A DNA stretch of 64,000 nucleotides, from assembly GCA_035480575.1 (NCBI GenBank), contig DATIHR010000022.1, forward strand, positions 750 through 64,749, given 5' to 3'. Under the pieces are notes generated by a model. The model was not told the DNA's origin and ran no database searches. It worked only from the letters and a program-made list of their open reading frames with translations. A program made the translations under genes and the position numbers. The stretch's first letter is position 1; each line of letters begins with the position of its first letter. Of this stretch, positions 6,929-50,796 are shown piece after piece. The DNA is from Candidatus Saccharimonadales bacterium (lineage in GTDB: Bacteria; Patescibacteriota; Saccharimonadia; Saccharimonadales; UBA4665).

Positions 6929-8506
6929 ATGTTAAAATGGGGCATGCCTCGCAAAGAATCGATAGACATACGCAAACTCCGATACGTGTTGTACGCCCGC
7001 AAATCAACTGAAGATGAAGCGCGTCAGGTGCGTTCAGTCGGTGACCAGATAAAGGACTGCCAGAAGCTGGCAAAAGATCTTGGGCTGAACGTCGTCGAGA
7101 CAATAAAAGAGACCAAATCTGCCAAGCGTCCGGATCAACGACCTCTTTTCTCGAAGATGATTAAAGACATTGAGGCGAAGAAATACGATGCCATCCTTTG
7201 CTGGCACCCTGACAGGTTGTGTCGAAACATGCTTGAGGGTGGCCGCATTATCAATATGTTGGACGAGAACACGTTAAAAGATATTCGTTTCAACAGCCAC
7301 CAATTTAGCAATGATGCAAACGGCAAAATGCTCCTGGGTATGCTTTTTGTTTTCTCGAAGCAATATTCGGACGACCTATCTGATAAAGTAAATCGCGGTA
7401 TAAGCGGTAATCTGGAAGAAGGTAAATCGGCGGGTGCGCCTAAGCTGGGATACACGCGCAGCGAGGTGACTGGCTATTACGAACCTAACGAATTTTTTGG
7501 TGTAATCGAAGAGGCCTGGCGTAGAAGGCTTACCGGCGAGAGCTTAGATGCAATAACTGCCTACTTACATGAACAGAATGTCCATAGGGTGACGAAGAAT
7601 AAGAAGAAACAGCGAATTCTAAGACCAGGCAAAAGTACCGTCGGTTATATGTTCAGCGACCCATTCTACTACGGCATTTTGATACAGGCTAGCCAAACTG
7701 TTGATTTATGCGAGCTTACACCTTTCAAGAAGATCGTCACCAAAGAGATGTACGAACAGGTGCAGGCCCTGGGTTACGGCAGGACAAAAAGTCATGCCGA
7801 CAAGAAACGGACAACGTTTTTCCCGTTGCGTGGTTTTGTATATTGCGGAGTTTGTAATAGCGATAAATACATGAAGGTGGGCAAAAATAAGACTGGCGGC
7901 GGCACGTACGTCCTTACTTACAGGTGTGACAATAAAGAGTGCACGCGTCAGGTGAAGTCTTTTAGAGCCAAGTACATATTTGAATCGATTTATAAAACAC
8001 TGGATAAGTTTGAACTAGGCGATGAGGCTTATGGCCGCTATAGTGCGAAGATTGACGGCCGCACTGATGAGAAGATAGTTGAAATCAAACAAGCCATTCA
8101 CAGTAAGCGTGGAGTCTTGAGCCACATTAAAAGTGAGCTTAGTGAGCGGGCGTTGGCTGTTGGGCGTATGGAAAAGAAGTCGCCAGCATATCAGCCGAAC
8201 ATGGATAAGCTCGAACAGCTTGCCGATCAACAGGCCGATCTTGAAGAAGAAATTCGCAAGCTGGATGAAAAAGTGGCAAATCCGCGCCAAATAAAGGTAG
8301 GCAGGGAAGAGTTTTTGAACCTGGTGAAAACAGCGTCACAACGGATGAAAGCTGGCTCTGCAGTCGAAAAAGACGTACTTTGTCGCATTTTGTTTTTGAA
8401 CCTACGCGTAGATAACGAAAAAGTGGCCTCCTACCTCTGGCGCGAACCGTTCGCGACGTTGGTAAAGGCCACTGAAATCCAGGATGGTGGGGGTGGATGG
8501 ACTTGA
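6929..8506 (+). CDS. Large serine recombinase/integrase
   Basis: YARKSTE catalytic motif, resolvase domain, recombinase domain, Zn ribbon (CGVC...YRCDNKEC) and coiled coil; 525 aa. Confidence 0.92.
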   Translation: MLKWGMPRKESIDIRKLRYVLYARKSTEDEARQVRSVGDQIKDCQKLAKDLGLNVVETIKETKSAKRPDQRPLFSKMIKDIEAKKYDAILCWHPDRLCRNMLEGGRIINMLDENTLKDIRFNSHQFSNDANGKMLLGMLFVFSKQYSDDLSDKVNRGISGNLEEGKSAGAPKLGYTRSEVTGYYEPNEFFGVIEEAWRRRLTGESLDAITAYLHEQNVHRVTKNKKKQRILRPGKSTVGYMFSDPFYYGILIQASQTVDLCELTPFKKIVTKEMYEQVQALGYGRTKSHADKKRTTFFPLRGFVYCGVCNSDKYMKVGKNKTGGGTYVLTYRCDNKECTRQVKSFRAKYIFESIYKTLDKFELGDEAYGRYSAKIDGRTDEKIVEIKQAIHSKRGVLSHIKSELSERALAVGRMEKKSPAYQPNMDKLEQLADQQADLEEEIRKLDEKVANPRQIKVGREEFLNLVKTASQRMKAGSAVEKDVLCRILFLNLRVDNEKVASYLWREPFATLVKATEIQDGGGGWT

Positions 8507-8560
8507 ACCATCGACCAAAGGATTATGAGTCCTCTGCTCTAACCACTGAGCTACACCCCC
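8485..8560 (-). tRNA. tRNA-Ile2 (CAU, lysidine type), CCA encoded
   Basis: GGGGGTGTAGCTCAGTGGTTAGAGCAGAGGACTCATAATCCTTTGGTCGATGGTTCAAGTCCATCCACCCCCACCA. Ile2 assigned by resemblance and by elimination, since fMet and elongator Met are found elsewhere in the window. Confidence 0.85.
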
Positions 8561-16229: not shown

Positions 16230-16304
16230 CGCGGGGTGGAGCAGCGGCAGCTCGCGTGGCTCATAACCACGAGGTCAGAGGTTCGAGTCCTCTCCCCGCA
16301 ACCA
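16230..16304 (+). tRNA. Initiator tRNA-fMet (CAU)
   Basis: C1:A72 mismatch, CTCATAA loop, CCA encoded; TTGACG-17-TACTAT promoter upstream. Confidence 0.9.
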
Positions 16305-20912: not shown

Positions 20913-20989
20913 GGCAGGGTAGCTCAGCTGGTTAGAGCACAGGACTCATAAGCCTGGGGTCGCGAGTTCAAGTCTCGCCCCTGCTACCA
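20913..20989 (+). tRNA. Elongator tRNA-Met (CAU)
   Basis: GGCAGGG acceptor stem, CTCATAA loop, CCA encoded; A31.G39 mismatch. Confidence 0.85.
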
Positions 20990-34361: not shown

Positions 34362-34431
34362 TGTAGTGCTAAGCGAGAAGGTTCTAGCACTCTTGACTCG
34401 CAGTGCTCTATGTTGGCTATCTTGAGGTTTG

Positions 34432-34469
34432 CTAGCACTCTTGACGCTGGACTGCTAATCTTTTACTAT
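34432..34469 (+). promoter_or_regulatory. CIRCE operator overlapping the hrcA promoter
   Basis: CTAGCACTC-TTGACGCTG-GACTGCTAA; -35 TTGACG lies in the spacer and -10 TACTAT is at 34464. A more degenerate copy (8-nt spacer) is at 34384-34409. Confidence 0.85.
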
Positions 34470-34478
34470 AAGAGCAAT

Positions 34479-35213
34479 ATGACGGAGCGTCAGAAGCAGA
34501 TTTTATGTTCGATTGTCGAGCAGTATGCCGAAGTGGCCAGCCCGGTTGGTTCTAACCTGCTTGCTAAAGCGTTTGGGGTTAGTAGTGCCACCATTCGTGC
34601 CGAAATGGCTGAACTAGAGCGTATGGGGTATATTGCACAACCGCACACCAGCGCCGGCCGCGTGCCAACCGATAAAGGCTACCGGTTTTACGTCAATACA
34701 CTAGCCGAAGAAAAGGGTAGTGTGCCCAACGCCAACGCCCAGCGTGCCCTGAGTGCCCGGGTGCACGATGCCGGTATGCCGGAGCGTACCATTCGCAACG
34801 CCGTCGATACGCTCGTAGAACTAACCCATAACCTTGGCCTTGCAACCATTGGCAACCAGCTGTACATGAGCGGCCTGTCTAATTTGTTTGGCCAGCCGGA
34901 GTTTATGCAGGCGGGGCAGGTGCGCCAGGTAGCCGAATTACTTGATAACTTAGAGCCATGGCTCCGCGAAGCTGCACCCAACCAGCCGCTGAGTGTATAC
35001 ATAGGTCGCGAGAATCCCATTGGCCGTAGCGCGGGCTGTTCGCTTATTATCAGCCGATTCGTTAGCCCATATAGCGACCGCAGTTATATAGGCGTGCTCG
35101 GGCCGACTCGCCAAAATTACCGCGATGTTATGACGCTGGTAGGGCGTGCCGGTAAAACGCTCGAAGAAGTATTGTATGATGGACCTGTCGCTCCCCAAGG
35201 ACTCCTTAATTGA
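34479..35213 (+). CDS. hrcA: Heat-inducible transcription repressor, short form
   Basis: MTERQKQIL, SSATIRAEMAELE, PHTSAGRVPTDKGYRFYV and GVLGPTR. Confidence 0.95.
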   Translation: MTERQKQILCSIVEQYAEVASPVGSNLLAKAFGVSSATIRAEMAELERMGYIAQPHTSAGRVPTDKGYRFYVNTLAEEKGSVPNANAQRALSARVHDAGMPERTIRNAVDTLVELTHNLGLATIGNQLYMSGLSNLFGQPEFMQAGQVRQVAELLDNLEPWLREAAPNQPLSVYIGRENPIGRSAGCSLIISRFVSPYSDRSYIGVLGPTRQNYRDVMTLVGRAGKTLEEVLYDGPVAPQGLLN

Positions 35214-35242: not shown

Positions 35243-35725
35243 ATGGCAAAGAAACAACCCGACGAACCACTCGAAGACGAACTATTACACCTCCAGCAAC
35301 AGGTGACCGATTTAACCGATGCGCTGCAGCGCGAACGCGCTGATGCAACAAATATCCGCCGCCACCACGAACAGCAGTTTGCGAGCGTACGTACACTTGC
35401 CAAGGTTGGTGTAGTACGCGATCTTTTGCCGGTTATTGATAATTTTGAGCGCGCCTTAAAGCACGTTCCGAAAGATCTAGAAGGCAACGATTTCGTAAAA
35501 GGCGTGCAGGGCGTTGTAAAGCAATTTGACGCAACGCTTGCCGGTATGGGCGTGCAAAAGATTAAAACCGTGGGCGAGCCGTTTGACCCACGCTACCACG
35601 AAGCAGTCAGCATGGACGAGGGCGATGGTGGCGACCAAGAGGTTGTAAGCGAAGAGCTACAATCCGGCTACACCATGGGCGACGAAGTTATACGCCACGC
35701 CATGGTGCGGGTAACGCTCCAGTAA
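35243..35725 (+). CDS. grpE: Nucleotide exchange factor GrpE
   Basis: LLPVIDNFERAL, FDPRYHEAV and GYTMGDEVIRHAMV. Confidence 0.95.
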   Translation: MAKKQPDEPLEDELLHLQQQVTDLTDALQRERADATNIRRHHEQQFASVRTLAKVGVVRDLLPVIDNFERALKHVPKDLEGNDFVKGVQGVVKQFDATLAGMGVQKIKTVGEPFDPRYHEAVSMDEGDGGDQEVVSEELQSGYTMGDEVIRHAMVRVTLQ

Positions 35726-36345: not shown

Positions 36346-36419
36346 TTAGCACTCTTGACAGCCGAGTGCTAAAAAATTATGCTAGAATGGTCTTAGCACT
36401 CAACCAACTATACTGCTAA
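36346..36419 (+). promoter_or_regulatory. Tandem CIRCE operators and dnaK promoter
   Basis: Perfect TTAGCACTC-TTGACAGCC-GAGTGCTAA (36346-36372) and TTAGCACTC-N9-TACTGCTAA (36393-36419); TTGACA-17-TATGCT. Confidence 0.92.
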
Positions 36420-36435
36420 AAAGGAGCGATGAATT

Positions 36436-38346
36436 ATGGGAAAGATTATAGGTATCGACTTAGGGACAACCAACTCGGCTATGGCTGTTATGCAAAGCGG
36501 CAAGCCGGATATTATTGCCAACAGCGAAGGCGCACGCACCACGCCAAGTGTCGTGGCTATTAACAAAAACGGCGAACGTTTAGTGGGCCAGGTTGCCCGC
36601 CGCCAGCAGGTTACGAACTCTAAGAACACTATTTACGAAGTGAAGCGTCTTATTGGCCGTCGCTGGGAAGACAAAGAAGTCCAGCGCGACCTTAAACTTA
36701 TGGGCTACGAGATCGTTAAGAGTGGCAATGCTGTAAAGGTTAAAATGGGCGATAAAGAGTACAGCCCCGAGGAAATTAGCGCCATGGTACTTGGCAAGCT
36801 AAAGGCCGACGCCGAGGCATTCCTTGGCCAGCCGGTAAGCGAAGCGGTTATTACCGTGCCAGCGTACTTTGATGACAGCCAACGCCAGGCCACCAAAGAC
36901 GCCGGTAAAATTGCTGGCTTGGAAGTGAAGCGCATTATTAACGAGCCGACTGCCGCAGCCCTAGCCTACGGCCTGGACAAGGGCAATAAGAAAGACGAAA
37001 AGATTGCCGTATACGACCTTGGCGGTGGCACATTTGACGTTTCGATTCTAGAGCTAGGCGAGGGTGTGTTTGAAGTAAAAAGCACTAATGGCGATACGCA
37101 TCTTGGTGGCGCCGACTTCGACCGCGTGCTTGTCAACTACTTTGCTGACGAATTTAAGAAAGAGCATGGTATAGATATTAGCGACGACAAAGCCGCCATG
37201 CAGCGCCTACGCGACGAAGCCGAAAAAGCTAAGATTGAGTTGTCTACCGCACAAGAAGTAGACATTAACCTGCCATTCTTAACCGCCGACGCCGACGGGC
37301 CGAAGCACTTCGAGCACAAGTTGAGCCGCGCCAAACTTGAGAGCCTGGTTGCAGAGCTTATTAGTAAGACTGCCGATCCTTGCGAGAAGGCACTTAAAGA
37401 CGCGGGGCTGAGCGCCAGCGACATTAACGCTGTGGTATTGGTTGGTGGTATGACCCGCATGCCAGCCGTACAAGAGAAGGTAAAGCAGATCTTTGGCAAA
37501 GACCCTATGAAGGGCGTTAACCCGGACGAAGTCGTCGCCATTGGCGCAGCTATCCAAGGTGGCGTACTGCAGGGCGATGTTAAGGATGTGTTGCTGCTGG
37601 ACGTTACCCCGCTGTCTTTGGGTATTGAGACCATGGGCGGTGTTATGACCAAGCTTATTGACCGCAACACAACCATTCCTACCAGCAAGAGCGAAGTCTT
37701 CAGCACGGCTGCCGACAATCAACCCCAGGTAGAGGTACACGTACTGCAGGGCGAACGCGGCATGGCCGGCGACAATAAGAGCTTGGGCCGGTTTATCTTA
37801 GATGGCATTCCCCCCGCGCCACGTGGCATTCCACAAATTGAAGTTACCTTTAACATCGACGCCAACGGTATTTTGAACGTCACTGCCAAGGATAAAGGTA
37901 CTAGCAAAGAGCAGAGCATTACCATCAGTGGCAGTGGCAACCTGGATAAGACCGAGGTGGAAAAAATGGCCAAAGAGGCCGAAGCCAACGCAGAGGAAGA
38001 CCGCAAGAAGCGCGACGCCGTAGAAGCCCGCAACGTGCTCGAAAATTCTATCTATCAGGCCGAGAAGCTCAAGAGCGACTACAAGGACAAGCTGGCCGAA
38101 GAAGACGTAAAAGGCTTAGACGAAGCCATCGAAGCAGCCAAAAAGGTAGCTAAAGACGAAAAGGCCGATAAAGATGCGCTAGAAGCAGCCGCTAAGGCGC
38201 TGAACGACAAGATTATGCCCATTGGCGCCAAAATGTACGAATCCGCCAAGGACGAAGCTCCGGCCGAAGACGCTGAAGCTGCGGCTGACAAAAAGAAAGA
38301 CAAAGATGACGATGCCGTAGAGGGCGAAGTCGTCGACGAAAAATAA
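36436..38346 (+). CDS. dnaK: Chaperone DnaK
   Basis: [19 protein letters not shown] and the Hsp70 layout. Confidence 0.98.
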
Positions 38347-38364: not shown

Positions 38365-38793
38365 ATGGAACTCCATAAGGAATATTGGCCGGATGTACAA
38401 CAGTACTGTGCCACTATTCTTGATGGAATACAGGCAAAGCGGCAATGGGTGTTGTGGCCTGTTGCCCGCACTGTATGTATCAAATACAGTTGGCGAGCTG
38501 ACCAGCCTACCCCACCACACGACGAGCAGCTAGGGCTGTATAAAGATCAGCTCTTGCTGCTCGGGTGGACCACGCTTACACACGAACTGACAATTCCGGA
38601 TTATCCGTATCCGCGTGTCATGCGTTTTAATCCAGACGAGGAACGAGTGTACGATGCACTTCCTTGGAAGGGATGGCACGCTCCTCGGGGCTGGCGGCAG
38701 TTAGGTCAGGAACATTACGATTTAATGTACGATGCCCTTGCCCGCGGCGCTGCTGCCAGGCAGCAAGAGCGGCAAGGGGGAAGCGCGCTTTGA
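38365..38793 (+). CDS. Hypothetical protein
   Basis: 142-aa ORF directly after dnaK. Confidence 0.55.
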   Translation: MELHKEYWPDVQQYCATILDGIQAKRQWVLWPVARTVCIKYSWRADQPTPPHDEQLGLYKDQLLLLGWTTLTHELTIPDYPYPRVMRFNPDEERVYDALPWKGWHAPRGWRQLGQEHYDLMYDALARGAAARQQERQGGSAL

Positions 38794-38827
38794 CAAACCA
38801 AAAGTGGCAGGCGACAATAGGAGTACT

Positions 38828-39196
38828 ATGTTAGGACTAACCCATAAAGACGCAAATGCAGATAAGCTAACCGTGCAGGTGCATACCATAGCCGGTAGTG
38901 AAGTGTTTGGGTTGGCCCAAAAAATCTGGGGCGAAAATGTTCGCTCGCTGCGCGTAGACCCGGAATCTGGCAAGGAATTCCTGCATTTCGGCTACGCTAA
39001 CCCAAAGTGCGTGGTTTGGCTGCAGCACGATAAGGGGCGGAACGACATTTACGAGCTTATCGTAAACTGGCAAAGCACTGGTACGCACGAGGTATATGTT
39101 ATTATTGCCGGCGACGCCCAGCCAGTGGGCGACGACACAAGGGCCAAGGCCGTATTAAACAGTATGCTCATTACCCCTTCGGTGGTATTGACCTAA
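38828..39196 (+). CDS. Hypothetical protein
   Basis: Start reassigned to the ATG at 38828, which follows TTGACA-17-GACAAT and AGGAG. Confidence 0.6.
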   Translation: MLGLTHKDANADKLTVQVHTIAGSEVFGLAQKIWGENVRSLRVDPESGKEFLHFGYANPKCVVWLQHDKGRNDIYELIVNWQSTGTHEVYVIIAGDAQPVGDDTRAKAVLNSMLITPSVVLT

Positions 39197-39215: not shown

Positions 39216-40307
39216 ATGGCAAAACGAGATTATTACGAAGTACTAGGTGTTGGTAAAAACGCGAGCGCAGACGAGATTAAAAAAGCGTTTCGCCGTTTAG
39301 CCGTGCAGCATCACCCCGACAAAGAGGGTGGTGACGAAACCAAGTTCAAGGAAATTAACGAAGCCTACGAGGTATTAAAGGACCAATCTAAGCGCCAGCG
39401 CTACGATCAGTTCGGCCATGCCGGCGTCGGAGGTAGTGCCGCAAGCGATGGTAATCCGTTCGGCGGTGGCTTTAATGGCCAAAACGTAAACTTCGATTTT
39501 GGCGACCTGGGCGATATATTCAGCAACTTTTTTGGTGGCGGCCAACAACAGCGCAGTACCCGCCAGAATCGCGGGCGCGATGTTGAGGTGCGCATTGAGC
39601 TAACCTTCGAACAGGCAGTATTTGGCACCGAAAAAAACATAGCACTCAATATTGACGACACGTGCGAACACTGCAAGGGCACGACTGCGGAGCCAGGACA
39701 CGAACTCAAAACTTGCGAAACCTGTAAAGGCAGCGGGCAAGTGGTGCAGGTAATGCGCACCATATTTGGCAACATTCAGCAGGCCTCTATTTGCCCTACC
39801 TGTAAGGGCCGGGGCAAGATACCCGAAAAGGTATGCACGGTGTGCCACGGCTCGGGCACGCAGCGCAAAGTGCAAGAGTTGACCATTAAGGTGCCGGCCG
39901 GCATAGACGACGGTGCGGTTATACGCTTGCGTGAGCGCGGCGAGGCGGTTGCAGATGGCCCCAAGGGCGATTTGTACGTTAATGTTCGGGTTAAAGCCCA
40001 CAAAAAGTTTACGCGTGAAGGCGATTTAATTTTAAGTGAAGAACATATAGGCATGGTCGAGGCGGCCCTGGGCACTGAAATTGATGTCGATACTGTAGAC
40101 GGCCCCGTACGCATGAAGGTGCCCACTGGTACACAAAGCGGCACCGATTTTAAACTATCCGGCCATGGCGTACCGCATTTGCGTTCCGAGGCGCGCGGTG
40201 CACATATTGTAACGATTATTGTGGATACGCCCACTAAGCTCACGAAGCAGCAGCGTGAACTGCTTGAACAGTTCACAAAAGACACTGGCAAACGCCGTTT
40301 TTGGTAG
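39216..40307 (+). CDS. dnaJ: Chaperone DnaJ
   Basis: J domain with HPD; four CxxCxGxG repeats. Confidence 0.98.
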   Translation: MAKRDYYEVLGVGKNASADEIKKAFRRLAVQHHPDKEGGDETKFKEINEAYEVLKDQSKRQRYDQFGHAGVGGSAASDGNPFGGGFNGQNVNFDFGDLGDIFSNFFGGGQQQRSTRQNRGRDVEVRIELTFEQAVFGTEKNIALNIDDTCEHCKGTTAEPGHELKTCETCKGSGQVVQVMRTIFGNIQQASICPTCKGRGKIPEKVCTVCHGSGTQRKVQELTIKVPAGIDDGAVIRLRERGEAVADGPKGDLYVNVRVKAHKKFTREGDLILSEEHIGMVEAALGTEIDVDTVDGPVRMKVPTGTQSGTDFKLSGHGVPHLRSEARGAHIVTIIVDTPTKLTKQQRELLEQFTKDTGKRRFW

Positions 40308-40314
40308 GGTATCT

Positions 40315-41217
40315 ATGAAAAAGATTCTTATCATTGCTTCCAATGCACCTAAAGATTCGCCAGCCGTCCAGCGTTACCACGAGTTTGCCCCCAAAGATTC
40401 CGAAATTACTGTGCGCTGGCTGTCTGATTTCTTTGCAATATGGGACGGCCAGGCACTGCGGGTAATCGATGCTATTACTGGCGAAGAGCCTACCGGCTAC
40501 GACGTTGTGCATATTGCGGGCTGGAAAAGTCATGCCGACATTGCTTTTGCTCTAGCTACATGGTTAGAGCACCAACAGGTACCATTCGTGGGGCATACGC
40601 TGCTGGACTGGTACGCGGACTCTAAATTGGGCGAGCTTGTCCGGTTAACGACCGCTGGCCTGCCACACCCGCGTAGTTTTTACGCTGACGATAATACTCG
40701 CTTGTTACAACTATACGATTGGGCCGTAGTGCGGTGCGGTTTGCAACTGCCTGTGGTGGTCAAAAGTACGCTTGCATCGCGCGGGGAGCACAACTACTTG
40801 GTGCGCTCCCGCGATGAGCTGGCGGCCTTGCCACTCGATGCAGGCCATCGCTACCTGATTCAGGAATGTATACCGAATAAATGCGACTATCGGTTAGTCG
40901 TACTAGGCGGCAAAACGAAGATAATTATTAGACGCACGCGCCTGAGTGACGACACGCACTTGAATAATATTTCTCAGGGCGCAGATGCAACTTTGGTCGA
41001 CCTAGCAGATTTTCCAGCCGAGGCAATTGCCGTTGCCGAACAGGCTGCTAAAGCATTGGGCCGTGAGGATATTGCGGGTGTGGACTTGCTGCTAGACGAG
41101 CAAACGAATAAGCCATATGTACTTGAGGTTAATCGTACGCCGCATATGTCGCTCGGCGAACCCGCTGCAGTGGCCGCCAAAATGCAGGCATTATTTGCCT
41201 ATCTTGAGAGCGTATAG
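40315..41217 (+). CDS. RimK-like ATP-grasp ligase A (divergent N-terminus)
   Basis: PVVVKS, LIQECI, DYRLVV, HLNNISQG, AGVDL and LEVNRTP. Confidence 0.85.
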   Translation: MKKILIIASNAPKDSPAVQRYHEFAPKDSEITVRWLSDFFAIWDGQALRVIDAITGEEPTGYDVVHIAGWKSHADIAFALATWLEHQQVPFVGHTLLDWYADSKLGELVRLTTAGLPHPRSFYADDNTRLLQLYDWAVVRCGLQLPVVVKSTLASRGEHNYLVRSRDELAALPLDAGHRYLIQECIPNKCDYRLVVLGGKTKIIIRRTRLSDDTHLNNISQGADATLVDLADFPAEAIAVAEQAAKALGREDIAGVDLLLDEQTNKPYVLEVNRTPHMSLGEPAAVAAKMQALFAYLESV

Positions 41218-41252
41218 ACGTAGAAACGGCATAGTTCTGGTACGCTAGGTGT

Positions 41253-42155
41253 ATGAAACAAGTGCTCGTTATTGGCGGTGTTAGTACCGATCCGGCCGAC
41301 GTCGATGAAATAACTGCATTTACGGCTGGAGTCCACTCGCATGCTGGCGATGCGGCCGTGCAGTTTGCGCATCTCGACCAGCTGCAATTTGTGTTTGCGC
41401 CAGGCGATTTTAGAGTGTTTGATGCTAACAATAATTGCCCGCTCAGCGACTACAACCTGGTTATCCTACGTAGCAAAATGCGGACCTATGCGACGCTTGC
41501 CTATTGCCTGAGCCGCTACCTAACAAATGCCGGCATCCCGTTCTTTAATGATTACAGCACGTACTTTACCGGCACTAAACTGGGGCAGACGGTATTGTTC
41601 TACGAGCAGCGGGTGCCATTCTTAAAAACGGTTTATTCGCTGCATCCGGACCTTTTGGTGGCGGCAGCCGAGCAAGAACTGGGACTGCCGTTTATCTTAA
41701 AAGATAGCCGTGGTGCGCAGGGCAAGGCGAACTATCTGGTGCATTCCCTGGACGAAGCGCGCAGCATACTTGCTAGCGGACCAGACATGCAATTTTTGGC
41801 CCAGGAATATTGCCCCACCGACCGTGACTACCGCGTGCTTATTGCCGGGGGTGCAAATATGGTGTTTAGCAGACAGGGTAATCTAGATACGCATTTGCAT
41901 AACACCTCACAGGGCGCATCGGCACGGGTTGCCACCGACGAACTGCCGGAATCGGTTATTGCGGACGCCCGCAAGCTGGCTCGGCGTTTGGGCCTGAGTA
42001 CCGCTGGTATCGATGTCATACCGGGATCACGTGAACATGGCGCAGCGTTTTACTTTTTAGAGATCAACTCTCAGCCGCAGATTTTTACCGGTACGCTCTT
42101 GCCCGAAAAAGCAGCGTTATTTGAGCGCTTTATTGCTCGTCATCTTGGCCAATAG
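41253..42155 (+). CDS. RimK-like ATP-grasp ligase B (divergent N-terminus)
   Basis: PFILKD, LAQEYC, DYRVLI, HLHNTSQG, AGIDV and LEINSQP. Confidence 0.85.
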   Translation: MKQVLVIGGVSTDPADVDEITAFTAGVHSHAGDAAVQFAHLDQLQFVFAPGDFRVFDANNNCPLSDYNLVILRSKMRTYATLAYCLSRYLTNAGIPFFNDYSTYFTGTKLGQTVLFYEQRVPFLKTVYSLHPDLLVAAAEQELGLPFILKDSRGAQGKANYLVHSLDEARSILASGPDMQFLAQEYCPTDRDYRVLIAGGANMVFSRQGNLDTHLHNTSQGASARVATDELPESVIADARKLARRLGLSTAGIDVIPGSREHGAAFYFLEINSQPQIFTGTLLPEKAALFERFIARHLGQ

Positions 42156-43083
42156 GTTTAAACGGTGTCTGGCTCATGATGTACAGCACATTACGGTGCT
42201 CGGACGCTGCAAAGGACATTTTGGTAGCTGTTTTGGCGTGCGCGTTGTGGCGGTCTATTAAGAACGTGCCTTCCTCGCTTACTGATTGTTGGCACTCATC
42301 TTCTATGCGACCGGTTAGTTTATCGGCAAAGTCGGCCAGCCGGCAGCAGACTAAAAACTCCAGCTTGTTGTCTAGGCTAATGCGGTCGTAGTGCTTGGTT
42401 ATTATCTTCTGCATACGTTTCAGCATTTTGACGTATGTTGGCAAGGCGAACTCGGGCAGTTTATGTTCGTAAAAATTAGACTCGGCAATAATGCAGTGGG
42501 TGTAAAAGTATAGACACAGTCGCAGTTCTTCGTCGTCTTTTAAGTTGTAGCCTTTGCCTATTTTGTACAAACGCTTAAGCTTGATGGCATCTTTGCCGTC
42601 CTGACGCAACATAACGCGTTCGTACAGGTATATAAAGTTGATGGCATACGTGGACAGCATGCGCAAGGCATCGGCATCGCGCAGTAGCTTTTTCTCTAGC
42701 GCAGTCAGTTTGTCTTCGTCGACTGCATTAAACAGCGCGTCGCGGGCGTCGATGTCGTAAATTGCCAGCCAGTGCCGTACCCGGAACAAGGCAAGTTCTA
42801 TGCCGCGCAGGCTGGGGTAACGTGTAAAGTACGGCGCACGCAGCTCGTGCCCGTTAACGGCGGTAGTGGGCGCATTGTGTACGATATTTTCTAGCGCCTC
42901 GCGCAGTACGCCGTCGGCGGGAAATTCGGGAACGTACTGTGGACGCAGGCTGTGCAGTACTGCCGTGGCGCGCTCGTCTTGATACCAGGCGTGCAGGCGG
43001 GCCGCATAATGAAACTGTTTTTCTGTGGGCAACTGCGTCAGATAACCGAAGTAATAATCGCGAATACGACCGGCTAGATCCAT
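42130..43083 (-). CDS. DUF3541-like alpha-helical protein
   Basis: KQFHYAARL, YFYTHCIIAESNFY and EHRNVLYIM resemble DUF3541 motifs as recalled; not searched. Confidence 0.5.
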   Translation of the reverse strand: MDLAGRIRDYYFGYLTQLPTEKQFHYAARLHAWYQDERATAVLHSLRPQYVPEFPADGVLREALENIVHNAPTTAVNGHELRAPYFTRYPSLRGIELALFRVRHWLAIYDIDARDALFNAVDEDKLTALEKKLLRDADALRMLSTYAINFIYLYERVMLRQDGKDAIKLKRLYKIGKGYNLKDDEELRLCLYFYTHCIIAESNFYEHKLPEFALPTYVKMLKRMQKIITKHYDRISLDNKLEFLVCCRLADFADKLTGRIEDECQQSVSEEGTFLIDRHNAHAKTATKMSFAASEHRNVLYIMSQTPFKPIGQDDEQ

Positions 43084-43154
43084 ATCGGTATAATAGCATG
43101 AGAAGTACTATGGGTATTGAAGCATAACGGTTTTTATGTTATAGTTAACAGTCT

Positions 43155-43649
43155 ATGCCAAGTAGCATTCCAAAGAAAAAAATTATCGGCCGCGTTGAAC
43201 AAGTCATTTTCCCTTTTATAGGGCAGCAGCCGGTGCACGCACGCATTGATACGGGCGCGCAGACATCGGCTATCTGGGCGTCGGTTATCACGCAGCAAGA
43301 TGGACGGCTGGGCGTCGTCTTTTTTGGCAAGGGGCACCCGCTGTACGACGGAGTCGTGCATTATTTTGATGATTTTACGTACGGCATGGTGACAAGTTCT
43401 AATGGCCAGGCCGAGCCACGGTACAAAATACGGCTGTCTATTAAGCTGGGCGGCAAGCGTATCCGCGCAAGATTTACGCTTGCCGATCGCAGCACCCAAG
43501 TGTACCCTGTGCTTATCGGCCGTAATATCTTGCGTGGCAAGTTTGTTGTTGATGTCAAGCAAGGTACAGCACTGAAAACCGCAGAGCGTATACATTCTGC
43601 AGCCCTCCAGTCCCGCCTTGAGCGGCCGGTGAAAGAAATAGATTCATGA
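43155..43649 (+). CDS. RimB-like retropepsin-type aspartic protease (DUF785/ATP-dependent zinc protease family)
   Basis: ARIDTGA, FTLADRS and YPVLIGRN; overlaps the rimK start. Confidence 0.85.
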   Translation: MPSSIPKKKIIGRVEQVIFPFIGQQPVHARIDTGAQTSAIWASVITQQDGRLGVVFFGKGHPLYDGVVHYFDDFTYGMVTSSNGQAEPRYKIRLSIKLGGKRIRARFTLADRSTQVYPVLIGRNILRGKFVVDVKQGTALKTAERIHSAALQSRLERPVKEIDS

Positions 43650-44551
43650 AGATAGCAATTTTATCTAAAGGTGCCGCTAACTACACCACGAAGCGACTCA
43701 AGGAAGAGGCGATTAAGCGTGGGCACGACGTTAAGGTTATTAACTACGCCAAGTGCTACATGATTATCGAAAAGGGCCACCCCAAGGTGTACTACAAGGG
43801 GAAAGTTCTTGAGGGCTTCGATGCTATTATTCCGCGCATTGCCCAAAGTTACACCAAGTATGGTGGCGCAGTTGTCCGGCAGTTCGAAGTGCAGGACGTC
43901 TACACCACTGCTAAGTCTATTGCTATCGACCGCTCCCGCAACAAGTTGCGCGCTTACCAAATACTTGCAAAAGCCGGTGTTGGTGTACCTAAGACGGTGT
44001 TCGCTCGTGAAACCGCCGACCTAGAGGACGTTATTGCCAAGGCTGGTGGTGCCCCCTTAATTGTTAAAGTCGCCCGTGGCACGCATGGCAATGGTGTGGT
44101 GCTCGCTGAAACGCATAAGGCCGCCAAGGCTGTAATGCAGGCATTTTACGTCGAGGGCGTGACGTTCTTGGTGCAGGAATTCATTAAAGAATCTGCCGGT
44201 ACCGATATCCGTGCCATTGTCGTTGGCAGCCAGGTCGTAGCAAGCATTAAACGTCAAAGCCTGGACGACGATTTCCGTTCCAATACCCACCAAGGCGGCG
44301 TAGGTAAAACAGTTAAGCTAACGCCTGAGGAAGAGCGCACGGCAATTAAGGCGGCCAAGGCTATGGGCCTGCCGGTATGTGCTGTTGATATGATGCGTTC
44401 GGCTCGCGGGCCACTCGTTTTAGAGGTTAACTCGTCAGGTAGTATTAAGACGCCAGAACTACTTACAAAACGCAACTTAGCTGGTAAAATTATTGAGTAT
44501 ATAGAGCAGAACGCGAAACAACGCAACCGCAAAGATCGCGTTGGCGCATAA
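43646..44551 (+). CDS. rimK: Alpha-L-glutamate ligase RimK
   Basis: MKIAILS...YTTKRL, DAIIPRI, VQEFIKE, FRSNTHQGG and LEVNSS. Confidence 0.92.
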   Translation: MKIAILSKGAANYTTKRLKEEAIKRGHDVKVINYAKCYMIIEKGHPKVYYKGKVLEGFDAIIPRIAQSYTKYGGAVVRQFEVQDVYTTAKSIAIDRSRNKLRAYQILAKAGVGVPKTVFARETADLEDVIAKAGGAPLIVKVARGTHGNGVVLAETHKAAKAVMQAFYVEGVTFLVQEFIKESAGTDIRAIVVGSQVVASIKRQSLDDDFRSNTHQGGVGKTVKLTPEEERTAIKAAKAMGLPVCAVDMMRSARGPLVLEVNSSGSIKTPELLTKRNLAGKIIEYIEQNAKQRNRKDRVGA

Positions 44552-44577: not shown

Positions 44578-45015
44578 GTGTCCACGTTTAACTGGCGACC
44601 CTTACTGGTTGCCTGGATTGTTGTAGCAGTAGTGGTTTGGGAGGCTTGGCCACGCCAGGCGACAACGGTGCTGGCAGTGGGCACCCAGCGGTACAAACTC
44701 GAAACCATCACTACTCCCCAGGCAATGATTAAAGGTTTGGGTGGTAGAACCAGTTTGGCTAGAAATGCAGGTATGTTGTTCGCGTACGATCAATCGGCAC
44801 CAAACCGCTGTTTCTGGATGCGCGGTATGCGTTTCCCGCTCGACATTATGTGGCTGGATACGTATAAGCGCGTGGTGCACGTCGAGCAAGGCTTGTCGCC
44901 AAAAACCTACCCGAAAGAATTCTGTGCACCCCAAACATCACAATACGTCATAGAGCTCAACGCAGGCGAAGTACACCGTAGCCATATTGGCATTGGCCAG
45001 ACCCTCTCCTTCTAG
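44578..45015 (+). CDS. DUF192 family protein
   Basis: GLGGR...GMLF...FWMRGMRFPLDI...YVIELNAG. Confidence 0.9.
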   Translation: MSTFNWRPLLVAWIVVAVVVWEAWPRQATTVLAVGTQRYKLETITTPQAMIKGLGGRTSLARNAGMLFAYDQSAPNRCFWMRGMRFPLDIMWLDTYKRVVHVEQGLSPKTYPKEFCAPQTSQYVIELNAGEVHRSHIGIGQTLSF

Positions 45016-45052: not shown

Positions 45053-45550
45053 ATGGATGCTAACATCAGCCTGATTGTTGCGCTTGCCGTGCCTGCTGTT
45101 TTACTTCTAGCGCTTCGTATAAACGCCGCCATGGTGTTTTTGAGCTTGTGTCTTGGGCAAGTGATGGTGCTGTATGTGGCCACTGCAGCTACTGACATAC
45201 TAAAGGGGTCAATTCACGGTATTAGCCAGGCGAGTACCAGTACTATGCAACTTGCAGTGCTATTGGCGCCTGCGGCAGTTACGGCCATTCTTGGCGCGCT
45301 CAGTGTACATGGCAAGCTTAAAAATATTGGCAATTTTTTCCCGGCCGTGGGGGCAAGTGCGCTTGCCGTCTTGCTGGCAGTGCCGCTCTTGCCGACTACG
45401 GTTCGCCTGGCAGTCCAGTCCGAACCGGCATGGGATATATTAGCGAATGCTGAGGCGCTTGTTGTCGGTGTGGGCGGTTTAGTAAGCCTGATGTTTTTGT
45501 GGAGTATGCGCCGCCATTTAAAATCGCCAGAGAAACACAAAAAACATTAA
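45053..45550 (+). CDS. Integral membrane protein
   Basis: 165 aa, about 5 hydrophobic helices. Confidence 0.7.
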   Translation: MDANISLIVALAVPAVLLLALRINAAMVFLSLCLGQVMVLYVATAATDILKGSIHGISQASTSTMQLAVLLAPAAVTAILGALSVHGKLKNIGNFFPAVGASALAVLLAVPLLPTTVRLAVQSEPAWDILANAEALVVGVGGLVSLMFLWSMRRHLKSPEKHKKH

Positions 45551-45591: not shown

Positions 45592-45855
45592 TTAGTAATG
45601 AAACCGGCAGCCGATAACCTGGATTTCGGTATCGGTAACCGCATACACGAGCCTGTTCTTTTCGTCTACGCGTCTTGACCAAAATCCGGAATAGTTTTCC
45701 TTGAGGGGCTCCGGCTTGCCTATTCCATTAAATGGATCCCGCCCAGTATCGGCGATGAGCTTGTTGATTTTTTTAAGTGTCTTTTTATCTTGGTTGGCCC
45801 AGAATTGGTAATCATCCCACCCTTGGGGTGTAAACAATATATTTCGCTGTGCCAT
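45592..45855 (-). CDS. yoeB: Txe/YoeB toxin
   Basis: GIGKPEPLK, GFWSRRVDEKNRLVY and C-terminal RFHY. Confidence 0.95.
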   Translation of the reverse strand: MAQRNILFTPQGWDDYQFWANQDKKTLKKINKLIADTGRDPFNGIGKPEPLKENYSGFWSRRVDEKNRLVYAVTDTEIQVIGCRFHY

Positions 45856-45856
45856 C

Positions 45857-46111
45857 TTAGTTTTCTACAAGGTTGTGCTTTTCCAGTTCGCCTTTACGTA
45901 GTGCAGCGATGGAATGTTCTAGGTGTTTGCGGTTAGCGGGACTGCTGTTTAAATAATCGGTTTCTGCTTTGGAATTGTATTCATCCAGAGTCATGACCAC
46001 CACTGTTTGGCCGTCGTTGCGGGTAATAAGTAATACGTCTCGGTCCTCGATAACTTTATCGAAATAACCCTTAGTGTCTTTGCGAAATTTAGAAATAGAT
46101 GTGACGTTCAT
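45857..46111 (-). CDS. yefM: Phd/YefM antitoxin
   Basis: Phd fold; ETDYLNSSPANRKHL. Confidence 0.92.
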   Translation of the reverse strand: MNVTSISKFRKDTKGYFDKVIEDRDVLLITRNDGQTVVVMTLDEYNSKAETDYLNSSPANRKHLEHSIAALRKGELEKHNLVEN

Positions 46112-46395: not shown

Positions 46396-46472
46396 TGGAG
46401 GGCCCAGTGGGATTCGAACCCACGACACGCGGCTTAAAAGGCCGCTGCTCTAACCTGCTGAGCTATGGGCCC
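46396..46472 (-). tRNA. tRNA-Lys (UUU)
   Basis: GGGCCCATAGCTCAGCAGGTTAGAGCAGCGGCCTTTTAAGCCGCGTGTCGTGGGTTCGAATCCCACTGGGCCCTCCA; TTGACT-17-GATAAT promoter. Confidence 0.95.
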
Positions 46473-47387: not shown

Positions 47388-48821
47388 GTGCTGCAAAAAA
47401 TATATGCCAGGCGCCTAAAACGGGCGCCAATTGTTATCTCGGTTTGTTTGGCTCTATTTGCCGGTATTGGACTGGCTCGATATTACCCCGGCGTGTCTTT
47501 TGGTTGGCTTTGGCCTGTTGGCGTTTTGGTGGCGGTAACGCTGCGCAAGCACAATGTGGCTACGTTGCTTTGTTTAGCGCTGCTTGGCTTTGGTATTGGC
47601 TGGTGGCGGGGTTCGGTGGTTATGTACCGTATGGCGCCTTATAGCCAGCTGGCACTAACCAAGGTGACAGTCGTGGGTAGGGCAACGGACGATGCGGTGT
47701 ACGGCGAGCAATCGCAGTTGACATTTGGGTTAAGTGTCGTGCATGTAGTACAGCCAGTGCAGACTGCCTTGCCGGGGACACTTAAAGTATCCGGTTATGG
47801 GGTTGGTGGTGTATATCGGGGTGACAGAGTGGTGGTGTCCGGCAAGTTATACCCAACTCGTGGGAGTAACCAGGCGAGTATCAGTTTTGCCGAGCTAAAG
47901 ATTGTGGAGCGGGGGAGTTCTGGCATTGATGCGTTCCGGCGTAACTTTGCAGCGGGGTTGCAGTCGGCATTGCCCGAACCTTTGGCATCACTGGGCTTGG
48001 GCCTCCTTATTGGGCAGCGCAGCACGTTGCCGGCGGAAGTAACGAGCGTGCTGCTAACTGTTGGCCTAACGCACATAATTGCGGTGTCGGGATACAACCT
48101 GACGATTATTATCCAGGCAGTGCGGCGTCTTATGGGCAAGCGTTCTAAGTTTCAAACTATGGCGGTGTGCTTGCTATTAATGGGTACGTTTTTGTTGATT
48201 ACAGGCAGTAGCCCCTCAATTGTACGCGCTAGCATAATTAGCATGTTAAGTTTAGGTGTTTGGTATTACGGGCGGACCATTAAGCCATTGGTATTGCTGC
48301 TAACAGCAGGCGCGATAAGTGTGCTGCTAACGCCACTATACTTGTGGGGTAACGTTAGCTGGTATTTATCTTTTTTGGCATTTTTTGGTGTGCTGGTGTT
48401 AGCCCCATTGGTGACAAAGCGGCTGTATGGCAGGCGCACTCCAAAAATAATTGGGCAGATCGTTATAGAAAGCTCGTGTGCGCAAATAATGACCGTGCCC
48501 TACGTGCTGTATATATTTGGGCATATTTCATTTGTAGCATTGCCGGCAAATGTGTTGGTGGTGGCTGCTGTGCCGCTGGCAATGCTACTGTCCCTTATTG
48601 CAGGCCTCGCAGGTATGTTCATGCCAATTGTGGCCGGCTGGCTTGCTTGGCCGGCAGCCTGCGTACTGTTGTATATGCTGGATGTTTCCAGCTTACTTGC
48701 CGAGTTGCCATTTGCCGCTAGGAATAACACCTACAGTACTGCTACTGCCATGGCGTGTGCTTATGGCGTTATCGGGTTTGTGGCAGTGCTACTGTGGCGG
48801 CGGGCTGGGTCGGCCAGTTAG
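47388..48821 (+). CDS. comEC: ComEC/Rec2 DNA uptake channel (OB and competence domains, no beta-lactamase domain)
   Basis: GLTHIIAVSGYN, SIVRAS, LSFLAF and SLPANV-type motifs. Confidence 0.92.
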   Translation: MLQKIYARRLKRAPIVISVCLALFAGIGLARYYPGVSFGWLWPVGVLVAVTLRKHNVATLLCLALLGFGIGWWRGSVVMYRMAPYSQLALTKVTVVGRATDDAVYGEQSQLTFGLSVVHVVQPVQTALPGTLKVSGYGVGGVYRGDRVVVSGKLYPTRGSNQASISFAELKIVERGSSGIDAFRRNFAAGLQSALPEPLASLGLGLLIGQRSTLPAEVTSVLLTVGLTHIIAVSGYNLTIIIQAVRRLMGKRSKFQTMAVCLLLMGTFLLITGSSPSIVRASIISMLSLGVWYYGRTIKPLVLLLTAGAISVLLTPLYLWGNVSWYLSFLAFFGVLVLAPLVTKRLYGRRTPKIIGQIVIESSCAQIMTVPYVLYIFGHISFVALPANVLVVAAVPLAMLLSLIAGLAGMFMPIVAGWLAWPAACVLLYMLDVSSLLAELPFAARNNTYSTATAMACAYGVIGFVAVLLWRRAGSAS

Positions 48822-49436
48822 GTAGTCTATTTCGTCACCTTGTCGTGCCCGGCGAATGTAGCCAAACGTTAGCACGGTATCCGGCGGAATATGCTGGTTG
48901 GCTACTGCTTGTAGCGCGACTTCAAGGCTTGGAGGGCATTCGGTGTAAAATTTGAGCCAACCCACATGTATCTGAGGATGTTTATTCGATTTTGATTTAT
49001 TGCCGAGTCTTTTGACTGTTTCTTGGCTGACCTGACGCTCTTGGTGCATACTTGAGCGTGCAAGCTGCCCGCAGAATATTTTGCGATCTGGCTGGCCGCC
49101 CTGCAGTGAGTGGTTGAGACAGGCTGTCCCCACTTTTTTGCTGAACGATGGCAGTGAAGCAAGTTGTTCGTGTATACGATCTGCTATCTCGTCATAGCCC
49201 AGATATGTCAGCTCTGAGTCTGGCGCTGCATTCTGGACGGAGTGCTCGATAAAATTGCCACCAACGATTGGTATGGAAATTTTGTTAGGATCCATAAAGC
49301 GTACCGTGTTGTCGCTAATGGGCATATATTTGGTGACGGTATGCATAAGGGCTACGCTGAGTGCACTAATTACCTCTGGCTTGGGCAATGAAAGGTCTCG
49401 TTTAAAAACAACAATGTCCGGCGAGTGGTTAGGCAT
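48789..49436 (-). CDS. Tandem paralogue C, unknown function
   Basis: Shares IVGGN, PDSxL, PDR, QLA, HIPP and RQG with the next two; start inferred from the shared upstream motif. Confidence 0.65.
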   Translation of the reverse strand: MPNHSPDIVVFKRDLSLPKPEVISALSVALMHTVTKYMPISDNTVRFMDPNKISIPIVGGNFIEHSVQNAAPDSELTYLGYDEIADRIHEQLASLPSFSKKVGTACLNHSLQGGQPDRKIFCGQLARSSMHQERQVSQETVKRLGNKSKSNKHPQIHVGWLKFYTECPPSLEVALQAVANQHIPPDTVLTFGYIRRARQGDEIDYLTGRPSPPPQ

Positions 49437-49487
49437 GCAGCCGAATATAGCATACATTGCCGCTACTGGCTATACGGGGCCTCAGTC

Positions 49488-50120
49488 TTAAAGTCTCAGA
49501 TACTTATCTTGTTCGCTACCTTGCCGTATGCGTTTGACGGGGTCAAATATGAGTTGGCTGTTCGGCGGAATATGTTCGTTCGTTACCTTTATTAAATCCT
49601 CTTCCAATGATTTGGGGCATTGCGTAAGGAACTTTATCCAACGCAAGGCGTGCCGTCGAGAGTATGGAGGTGGCGTTAGGACACCCCCGAGTGCCGTCAA
49701 CGCTGCCTTGCCTAGATGGCGCTCTTCTAGGATGCTGGACTCGGCCAATTGTGTGCCGTACATTTTACGATCGGGTTTTCTGCCTTGTAGCTTATGAGCC
49801 AAAACAGAAATAGTTGTTGGGTCGGCGTACATGGGCGTGGCTGATATTTCTTCTTCTATGGCATCGGCTATTTGATCGTACGTAAGATGTACGAGTTCTG
49901 AATCGGGGTGGGCGGTCCTCATGGCATATGCTATGGCATTACCGCCAACTATACTTATGGCGCACTTTGCCGGATGGCTAAAACGCACCGAGTTTTTGTC
50001 GATAGGCATGTACTGCCCCACGACCCCAATAAGGTTGGCTTGGAGTTCACCAATAACCTGTGGCTCGGGCCAAACAAGCGGCCGCTTAAAGGTAATAATG
50101 TCAGGCGACAGTTCGGGCAT
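49488..50120 (-). CDS. Tandem paralogue B, unknown function
   Basis: Same motifs as paralogue C; ATG follows TATATTCGGCTGC. Confidence 0.65.
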   Translation of the reverse strand: MPELSPDIITFKRPLVWPEPQVIGELQANLIGVVGQYMPIDKNSVRFSHPAKCAISIVGGNAIAYAMRTAHPDSELVHLTYDQIADAIEEEISATPMYADPTTISVLAHKLQGRKPDRKMYGTQLAESSILEERHLGKAALTALGGVLTPPPYSRRHALRWIKFLTQCPKSLEEDLIKVTNEHIPPNSQLIFDPVKRIRQGSEQDKYLRL

Positions 50121-50161
50121 GCAGCCGAATATACCACATACCGCCACTACAGGGCTATACG

Positions 50162-50796
50162 TTACGTTATTTCTAAGTACCGATTTTTTTCGTCGCCCTG
50201 CCTCATTGATCTAACGCGGTCAAATACCATTGGCGTCCCTGGTGGAATGTGATCATTAGTGACTGTTATTAATTCGTTCACTAGAGGTTCGGGGCAGTCA
50301 ACTGCAAACTGTATCCAGGATACGGCATGCCAGGGAACGCGCCTACGTGGCAATGGAATATTGCCAAGCATTCTGAGTGCTGCTTGGCCTATAAAGCGCT
50401 CGTCTAGTATGGGCGATTCAGCTAGCTGTGTGCCGAACACTCTGCGGTCGGGCCGTCCGCCTACCATGCTGTGGGCAAAAGCGTGCGTAGCTAGTGGTTT
50501 GGTGTAGGTGGGAAGGATTGACACCTTTTCTTCTATGGCATCGGCGATCTGGTGCGGGGTTATGTTTGCGAGTGCCGAATCGGGGTCTGCGGTTTTAACG
50601 GCATGTTCAATGACATTGCCGCCTACAATACTTATGGCACAGTTGTTCGGGTTGCTAAAGAGTGCCGAATTCGAATGTATCGACATATAGCCTTTGACAA
50701 CTTGGATAAGGTCGGCCTGAAGCCTGCCGACCACGTCGGCTTCAGGCGAGAGGAGCTGACGTTAAAGACGACAAGATTAGGAGACAGATCGGACAT
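50162..50796 (-). pseudogene. Tandem paralogue A with an apparent 1-nt deletion near 50762
   Basis: The ATG at 50796 gives MSDLSPNLVVF, homologous to MPELSPDIITF; homology then continues in another frame (RQLLSPEADVVGRLQ). Span is 635 nt. Confidence 0.6.

Follow-up and report, generated by a model that had tools for sequence, protein, structure and literature searches.

A five-gene cluster at positions 40315–44551 of a 64,000-nucleotide stretch from a Candidatus Saccharimonadales bacterium (GenBank assembly GCA_035480575.1, contig DATIHR010000022.1; the whole stretch is hereafter called the window) encodes parts that almost certainly operate as one machine, judging from the way related bacteria fuse them into single proteins. 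These parts are two RimK-like ATP-grasp enzymes (LigA and LigB, representatives of what we call the lig family), an all-α protein resembling DUF3541 (here called C), a RimB-like protease and RimK itself. At the level of gene architecture, all four kinds of component are tied together by natural fusions of the types lig–C, lig–C–RimB, RimB–RimK and RimB–lig. With little better than even confidence, we lean towards a single multi-enzyme system that would make and trim α-linked, probably acidic chains, likeliest on a protein C-terminus, for which ribosomal protein S6 is the default candidate.

The cluster was first noticed in a sequence-only reading of this DNA, which described two ATP-grasp genes following dnaJ, a convergent helical protein and a divergent protease–rimK pair. 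An open reading frame (ORF) listing and hidden Markov model scans of the window place every one of these elements where that reading had put them. On the forward strand, ligA (40315–41217) and ligB (41253–42155) each encode 300 amino acids (aa). The reverse-strand gene for C (42130–43083; 317 aa) runs tail-to-tail into ligB, the two 3′ ends sharing the 26 bp (42130–42155) that the sequence-only reading had reported. A divergent spacer of 71 bp (43084–43154) separates C from the forward-strand gene for the retropepsin-type aspartic protease (43155–43649; 164 aa, with D-T-G-A at residues 32–35), which in turn overlaps rimK (43646–44551, forward), a homologue of poly-α-L-glutamate/S6-glutamate ligases, by 4 bp. 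The spacer contains a promoter-like site, TTGAAG-17-TATAGT with a TG element, pointing towards rimB–rimK at 43117–43145, which is a consensus match only. The DNA stems from a soil-metagenome member of the Saccharimonadales, and the nearest related locus (L001) belongs to an uncultured Candidatus Saccharibacteria metagenome-assembled genome (MAG).

Recurrent synteny, fusions and covariation

The association extends well beyond this genome. A scan of one genome per species yielded 71 loci encoding a C relative, and in about 61 of them an ATP-grasp gene is either fused to C or lies at most 100 bp away; most of the others are short contigs, with a Gracilibacteria locus that uses an alternative genetic code also among them. 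An iterative ATP-grasp search found two to three such genes within 6 kb of C in most loci, and about 50 Saccharimonadales loci keep the entire order dnaK…dnaJ–lig–C (convergent)–rimB–rimK–DUF192–membrane protein. Since the same gene set recurs across dozens of independent genomes, the arrangement is far from what chance would give. Together with the domain fusions described below, this recurrent synteny also refutes the notion that the genes do not co-occur elsewhere, a weak spot that the sequence-only reading had itself named.

Single ORFs of 590–616 aa that join lig to C are found in MAGs of Moranbacteria, Paceibacteria, Minisyncoccota, Uhrbacteria and similar lineages. Four Saccharibacteria loci go one step further and encode one ORF of 758–760 aa comprising ATP-grasp, C and PF05618 protease domains, with rimK directly after it. 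RimB–RimK fusions of 468–488 aa occur in three loci, and a RimB–lig-type fusion of 443 aa exists as well. The same picture emerged from a profile search of 1.84 billion representatives, which retrieved 480 family members (314 at E ≤ 1e-30): among the best 150 of these 480, standalone (~310 aa), double (~600 aa) and triple (744–770 aa) architectures recur. The core that these relatives have in common is one lig plus C, usually accompanied by a retropepsin-like domain on or beside a further ATP-grasp enzyme, which in Saccharimonadales is RimK.

A variation on this theme is seen in a Paceibacterota locus (L064:6911–10843), where genes for an ATPgrasp_ST ligase, a MATCAP-family metallopeptidase and an unassigned 254-aa ORF precede C. 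Going by its gene content, a MATCAP-family (tyrosine-carboxypeptidase-like) putative ‘eraser’ takes the place of the retropepsin in this locus.

Evolutionary rates tell a similar story. Across 28 loci with separate genes, mean pairwise identity is 0.82 for DnaK, 0.74 for RimK, 0.72 for DnaJ, 0.46 for RimB, 0.43 for C and 0.35 for lig. Pairwise p-distances of C correlate with those of RimB (rho 0.52; partial r 0.55 with the DnaK/DnaJ signal removed, permutation p = 0.001) and of lig (partial r 0.36, p = 0.001), while their correlation with DnaK or DnaJ is about zero, all of this being a mirror-tree statistic on p-distances of saturated sequences and hence soft. Read in this way, the fast evolution of lig, C and RimB sets this trio apart from a slow RimK at its centre, in agreement with the fusions.

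These results bear directly on the idea that lig/C and rimB/rimK are unrelated neighbours that merely share the synteny near dnaK–dnaJ, or that the locus makes a ribosomally synthesised and post-translationally modified peptide (a graspetide) or serves anti-phage defence. Adjacency alone is weak evidence because Saccharimonadales genomes are highly syntenic, and ligB does have faint matches, of about 19 bits, to graspetide maturase models. Yet the cut-offs of those models are 350–425, and no precursor-peptide gene is present at the locus. RimB is fused independently to lig–C, to RimK and to lig; the association with an ATP-grasp and retropepsin-like pair persists in other phyla of the Candidate Phyla Radiation (CPR), in different surroundings; and the covariation of C with RimB and lig exceeds what the species signal explains. 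The defence variant was dropped since PADLOC returned no match. Overall, we give this family of explanations, which the fusions largely refute, hardly any credence.

Predicted activities of the components

Both extra ligases match the ATP-grasp family PF08443 (44.2 bits for ligA against a cut-off of 21; 40.5 bits for ligB), but their kinship with RimK is distant. They are 28% identical to one another and each 26–27% identical to RimK, they stay under the cut-off of 143.4 for the rimK_fam model TIGR00768 (67.6 and 55.3 bits, respectively), and the Pfam scan found no Rimk_N domain (PF18030) in either. Their best solved relatives are RimK structures, with E values of only about 1e-5. The rimK product, in comparison, scores 188.5 bits for PF08443, 126.4 bits for PF18030 and 241.3 bits for TIGR00768, which places it within the RimK family, and aligns to the Pseudomonas RimK structure 7qys with 308 bits over residues 1–291. 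LigA and LigB are RimK-like ATP-grasp enzymes and not RimK.

Further insight came from aligning 59 lig sequences with RimK (positions are numbered as in the RimK of the window). Two lysines, the hinge glutamine, D187, R189, R203, N213 and G217 are conserved in 58–59 of the 59 sequences, as are the Mg-binding residues D248, E260 and N262, and LigA and LigB themselves retain every catalytic and Mg-binding residue of the ATP-grasp fold. Three RimK positions, E182, R211 and H215, are instead N, L and S across the whole lig family; by analogy with RimK/LysX-type enzymes, these would line the substrate-binding loop or pocket. Because these three are replaced while the catalytic residues are intact, a distinct substrate pocket is predicted, and we infer that LigA and LigB are working carboxylate–amine ligases with a pocket unlike that of RimK. 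A rough neighbour-joining tree puts all C-associated ligases in one clade separate from RimK, with LigB in the main Saccharimonadales type and LigA in a minor type, which several genomes have as their only ligase next to C. Considering the retained residues, the altered loop and the separate clade, the two enzymes are neither degenerate nor plain copies of RimK, a point on which the sequence-only reading had considered itself vulnerable.

How many ligases belong to the system is a different matter. The exact ligA–ligB pair recurs in two other metagenomic contigs (L072 and L073), in which the ligA orthologues occupy the same position and are 51–53% identical and the ligB orthologues are 53–60% identical; in both, a gene of 352–358 aa that the window lacks lies between the two. 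More widely, ligB orthologues of 30–60% identity stand tail-to-tail with C in about 45 loci, and a third ATP-grasp gene, of differing type, stands between dnaJ and lig in about 15 further loci from Saccharimonadales. The earlier description of a three-ligase cluster therefore holds for this genome, in which all three are present, but not as an invariant core, given that most relatives have RimK and one C-adjacent ligase. In terms of gene content, the third ligase is a recurrent yet variable accessory, and the conserved core is lig plus C (plus a RimB-like domain). A LysX/LysW carrier system was discarded as well: the LysX score of 44 bits compares with a cut-off of 275.6, and a LysW-like gene is not present.

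The gene found between the ligA and ligB orthologues is one instance of a conserved protein of about 350 aa with invariant H, D, E and G residues, which in at least nine related loci lies either there or between lig and C (for example, L072:3418–4494, L073:1128–2186, L001:7047–8105 and L004:10921–11967). It matches no Pfam or PDB profile and probably serves the same system as an accessory enzyme. The idea that it could be a hydrolase resembling formylglutamate amidohydrolase or PghP found no support in either set of profiles.

Protein C is the most enigmatic component. It reaches 23.1 bits against PF12060 (DUF3541), below the cut-off of 28.2, in an alignment spanning profile positions 7–300 of 330, and 21 of 25 members of its family match the same profile, with a best E value of 4.6e-9. 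The sequence-only reading had called it DUF3541-like; this stands in the sense of a divergent DUF3541-like branch, for which there is a fair case on the relatives' matches, even though the window protein itself misses the Pfam threshold. The homologue lists are saturated by CPR members and do not extend to canonical Vibrio-type proteins, and a tblastn search against plasmids for the context of canonical DUF3541 genes gave nothing useful. The literature was similarly silent: no paper mentioning DUF3541 was found, and the sole mention of PF12060 is in an unrelated Plasmodium paper.

An AlphaFold (AF2) model of C is confident (pLDDT 94.7, pTM 0.93) and entirely helical, with 17 helices. Foldseek nevertheless returned nothing significant for this model in the PDB (best E 0.2, TM-scores of at most 0.41, to generic helical barrels and toroids) and no match in BFVD, and a PDB profile search with the C sequence was equally negative. 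Conservation computed over 67 diverse C domains proved more informative. Some 20 polar positions show no or almost no variation, namely H25, R29, R82, D136, S144, N149, Y192, T195, H196, Y205, D238, K240, E242, E263, S267, D277, E295, H296, R297 and N298, a pattern that points to a pocket for ligand binding or catalysis more than to a passive scaffold. The cysteines are not invariant; a LanC-like Cys-Cys-His zinc site was considered and dropped, as Cys197 and Cys264 are conserved within Saccharimonadales only and not family-wide.

The same residues help to judge whether C could instead be the acceptor or carrier on which Lig builds its chain, in the manner of LysW for LysX, or undergo self-modification, as proposed for some ATP-grasp systems. 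RimK-family ligases such as LysX are generally known to use the carboxylate of a carrier protein, Lig and C are always paired or fused, and C has invariant Glu and Asp residues, all of which would suit such a role. The C-terminus of C, however, is variable across the family and internal in the lig–C–RimB fusions, for which reasons C is unlikely to be a C-terminal acceptor. In addition, a protein of 317 aa in which some 20 polar residues are invariant, among them His, Arg, Asn and Tyr, looks more like a pocket than a carrier tail, and the neighbourhood holds neither a small acidic LysW-like protein nor lysine or arginine pathway genes. We consider a carrier role improbable.

The protease is assigned by its PF05618 match (62 bits against a cut-off of 27), the I-D-T-G-A motif at residues 31–35 and its position next to rimK; it also weakly matches the PF05618 structures 9g59 and 2pma. 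With 58.4 bits it remains far below the cut-off of 200 for the RimB equivalog model NF052261. What the sequence-only reading had termed a RimB-like protease is thus RimB-like by its predicted fold and its context, not a certified orthologue. In Pseudomonas fluorescens, RimB is a DTG retropepsin-like endopeptidase whose DTG aspartate is catalytic; it strips glutamates off polyglutamylated RpsF and boosts poly-α-glutamate synthesis by RimK (PMC11957791; for further biochemistry of the pair, see PMC7343187). A RimB–RimK hybrid enzyme from Desulfotalea has been found to be active experimentally (PMC11957791).

Heat-shock context and flanking genes

Upstream of the cluster lies what looks like a classical HrcA regulon. 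Pfam confirms hrcA (34410–35213) and grpE (35243–35725), which are followed by a forward-strand operon that starts with dnaK (36436–38346), continues through two small overlapping ORFs (38365–39196) and dnaJ (39216–40307), and runs into ligA. A perfect controlling inverted repeat of chaperone expression (CIRCE), TTAGCACTC-N9-GAGTGCTAA, is located at 36346–36372 (+) 5′ of dnaK and overlaps the -35 box of a promoter-like site at 36355–36383. A copy with two mismatches follows at 36393–36419, and a further near-perfect copy precedes hrcA at 34432–34458; these three matches in the window compare with 0.02 expected by chance. Only 7 bp separate the dnaJ stop codon from the ATG of ligA, and the site scan found no terminator-like site in this gap region.

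Related loci retain much of this arrangement. The DnaK and DnaJ of the window are 75–93% and 62–89% identical to their counterparts, partial matches included, and a perfect CIRCE lies 5′ of dnaK or dnaJ in 21 of the related loci. Where dnaJ has become separated from dnaK, it keeps a CIRCE of its own (e.g. L015, L026, L041, L044 and L053), and in L015 the CIRCE-preceded dnaJ is followed by lig after 35 bp. Since CIRCE, hrcA and grpE are present and a terminator-like site before ligA is not, control of ligA and ligB by HrcA/CIRCE is plausible. The proposal that the two extra ligases may be part of the heat-shock transcript gains from these features as far as the window is concerned, but does not extend to all relatives: in L001 and L007, opposite-strand genes sit between dnaJ and lig, so that co-transcription is not universal.

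The tail-to-tail overlap of lig and C is itself a recurrent feature, kept in about 45 related loci and typically of 4 bp, compared with 26 bp in the window. Owing to this convergent overlap, read-through from the heat-shock operon would be antisense to C, for which a regulatory role is conceivable from the gene layout. The second of the two small ORFs between dnaK and dnaJ (38732–39196) is another conserved element, with 38–66% identity in related loci and no family assignment.

On the other side of the cluster, rimK is followed by genes for a DUF192 protein (44578–45015, +) with an N-terminal hydrophobic segment and for a multi-pass membrane protein of 165 aa (45053–45550, +). Both are syntenic 3′ of rimK in many Saccharimonadales, including L001 and L073. 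They could serve the system in export or at the envelope, or reflect synteny only, and their membership is uncertain.

Several other features of the window deserve mention. Just 3′ of the cluster, at 45592–46111 (-), a YoeB toxin (PF06769, 135.6 bits) and a Phd/YefM antitoxin (PF02604, 57.7 bits) form a type II toxin–antitoxin pair, which adjoins a tRNA-Lys gene (46396–46472). Three tandem paralogous ORFs (222, 219 and 190 aa), which resemble one another at the N-terminus and fit no Pfam family convincingly, occupy 48789–50734 (-), flanked by a ComEC-like competence gene (47388–48821) and yebC/ruvC. Finally, three separate tRNA-Met genes with CAT anticodons lie within 13 kb of one another (8485–8560, 16230–16304 and 20913–20989).

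Possible products and relation to known systems

The sequence-only reading had proposed an extended peptide-tagging or polyamide write/erase pathway, an interpretation that the present results support, with the product, the acceptor and the role of C as proposals. If the cluster does encode one system for making and trimming chains on a protein, RimK would elongate the chain and RimB would cut it. The Lig enzymes would act as extra writers whose amino-acid or acceptor specificity is unlike that of RimK, for instance by initiating, capping or branching chains. As an obligate subunit that is not a ligase, C would be catalytic or bind substrate and would dock Lig to RimB. Transcription of ligA and ligB with the HrcA/CIRCE-controlled dnaK–dnaJ operon would cause writing to rise under heat or proteotoxic stress, while C and rimB–rimK would be driven from the separate divergent promoter. 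RimK is about as conserved as DnaJ, which is consistent with a fixed macromolecular target; it is because of this high conservation that a protein acceptor such as S6 is favoured.

A number of observations weigh against this scheme. RimK reaches 319.8 bits for PRK10446, the S6--L-glutamate ligase equivalog, which is narrowly below the cut-off of 331 and leaves S6 specificity uncertified, and a query with an approximate Escherichia coli S6 sequence found no rpsF in the window or the fetched loci. C has neither a recognisable catalytic motif nor a structural neighbour in the PDB or BFVD, making any role a guess. Sequencing runs contain the locus in DNA runs from soil metagenomes only and in no RNA run. 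To these come the interrupted dnaJ–lig junctions and the softness of the covariation statistic already described. Moreover, in CPR bacteria other than Saccharimonadales, lig–C is partnered by an ATPgrasp_ST ligase together with a 7TM_transglut membrane protein, beside a gene resembling that of penicillin-binding protein (PBP) 1A. The ATPgrasp_ST partner carries a weak C-terminal PF05618-like segment, and another ATP-grasp protein of 313 aa accompanies it.

This membrane-protein and PBP context, as well as the DUF192 and membrane-protein genes in the window, would also fit a rival reading, in which the product is not a protein tag but a free or envelope-associated peptide or polyamide, be it poly-α-glutamate or a short hetero-oligopeptide. 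In this scenario, residues would be added one after another or of different kinds by the several ligases, RimB would control the size or release of the chains, and C would have an enzymatic role in processing or transfer. The product would function as an osmolyte, as a storage compound or as surface material. RimK and RimB do make free poly-α-L-glutamate in vitro (PMC11957791), and related retropepsin-like enzymes are reported to be required for osmotic stress tolerance in Pseudomonas aeruginosa (PMC12239564). The number and type of accessory ligases also vary by lineage, as in peptide pathways that are independent of nonribosomal peptide synthetases. By contrast, the Saccharimonadales cluster lacks a transporter or exporter of a recognised family, the conservation of RimK speaks for a fixed acceptor, and a bulk polymer would be costly for CPR cells, which are unable to make most amino acids. 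None of these objections is decisive, and we regard a free or envelope-bound product as possible, if doubtful, and the tagging of a protein as the better account.

Among characterised systems, the closest relatives are Pseudomonas RimABK (Little et al. 2016, PMC4741518; Grenga et al. 2020, PMC7343187) and the RimBK hybrid (Little et al. 2025, PMC11957791), with which the present locus shares translational coupling of a RimK ATP-grasp enzyme to a small, retropepsin-like DTG protease. Fusions of RimB to RimK are likewise seen among relatives of the locus, and the same write/erase logic on poly-α-glutamate may apply. There are marked differences, however. The locus has no RimA (EAL) but instead a second ligase family and a DUF3541-like domain that is sometimes fused to RimB; it is tied to an HrcA/CIRCE heat-shock operon and not to cyclic di-GMP; its protease is far under the RimB cut-off; and its host is an ultra-small CPR bacterium.

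Broader parallels can be drawn with predicted ATP-grasp peptide-tagging systems, which combine RimK-like ligases, peptidases and membrane proteins to produce tags or polyamides. Iyer, Abhiman, Burroughs and Aravind (2009, Mol Biosyst 5:1636) are said to have predicted such tagging or amidoligase systems with peptidases, including ones with ATPgrasp_ST and 7TM_transglut, and the clusters of CPR bacteria outside Saccharimonadales contain this very combination. In its logic only, the arrangement also resembles the eukaryotic tubulin code, where paralogous ATP-grasp writers with distinct roles (TTL/TTLL) modify an acidic protein tail and are opposed by dedicated peptidase erasers (CCP, VASH and MATCAP), the latter family being represented in the CPR locus L064; unlike in the tubulin code, the ligases here are RimK-like and not TTL-family enzymes, and the eraser in the window is a retropepsin. 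Precedents for joining an ATP-grasp-type ligase to another domain active on the same product, and for a RimK-family ligase that works on a dedicated partner protein, are provided by glutathionylspermidine synthetase/amidase and by LysX–LysW, respectively. C, in contrast, is predicted to be all-α, bears no similarity to CHAP amidases or LysW, and has no related pathway genes nearby.

Our literature search found no description of the lig–DUF3541 module or its retropepsin fusion, and no paper linking RimK with Saccharibacteria, Patescibacteria or CPR; the cluster genes go unmentioned in the main text of the Cell 2023 paper on Patescibacteria genetics. Thus, the RimB–RimK pair and its hybrid are already known, whereas the lig–DUF3541 extension is conserved and, as far as we could find, undescribed.

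The most far-reaching version of our reading would be a CPR-wide, stress-induced system with several writers and an eraser that places variable amino-acid tails on the ribosome or other proteins, much as a bacterial equivalent of the tubulin code would, and in which the DUF3541-like protein is essential and a new enzyme fold, e.g. with a new peptidase, transferase or chain-length-controlling activity. We deem this unlikely as a whole.

Genomes of Saccharimonadales and other CPR bacteria are roughly 1 Mb in size and have little dispensable content. To our knowledge, RimK/RimB is one of few systems that reprogram bacterial ribosomes post-translationally, and it has been studied only in Proteobacteria. 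The cluster described here indicates that in Saccharimonadales and other CPR bacteria this pair sits in a larger conserved machine, and it gives DUF3541 a first functional context. The natural fusions that link the new ligase family and the helical domain to RimB or RimK offer clear constructs for biochemistry. Finally, the HrcA/CIRCE link suggests that protein or peptide modification may respond to stress in a lineage with almost no known regulation.

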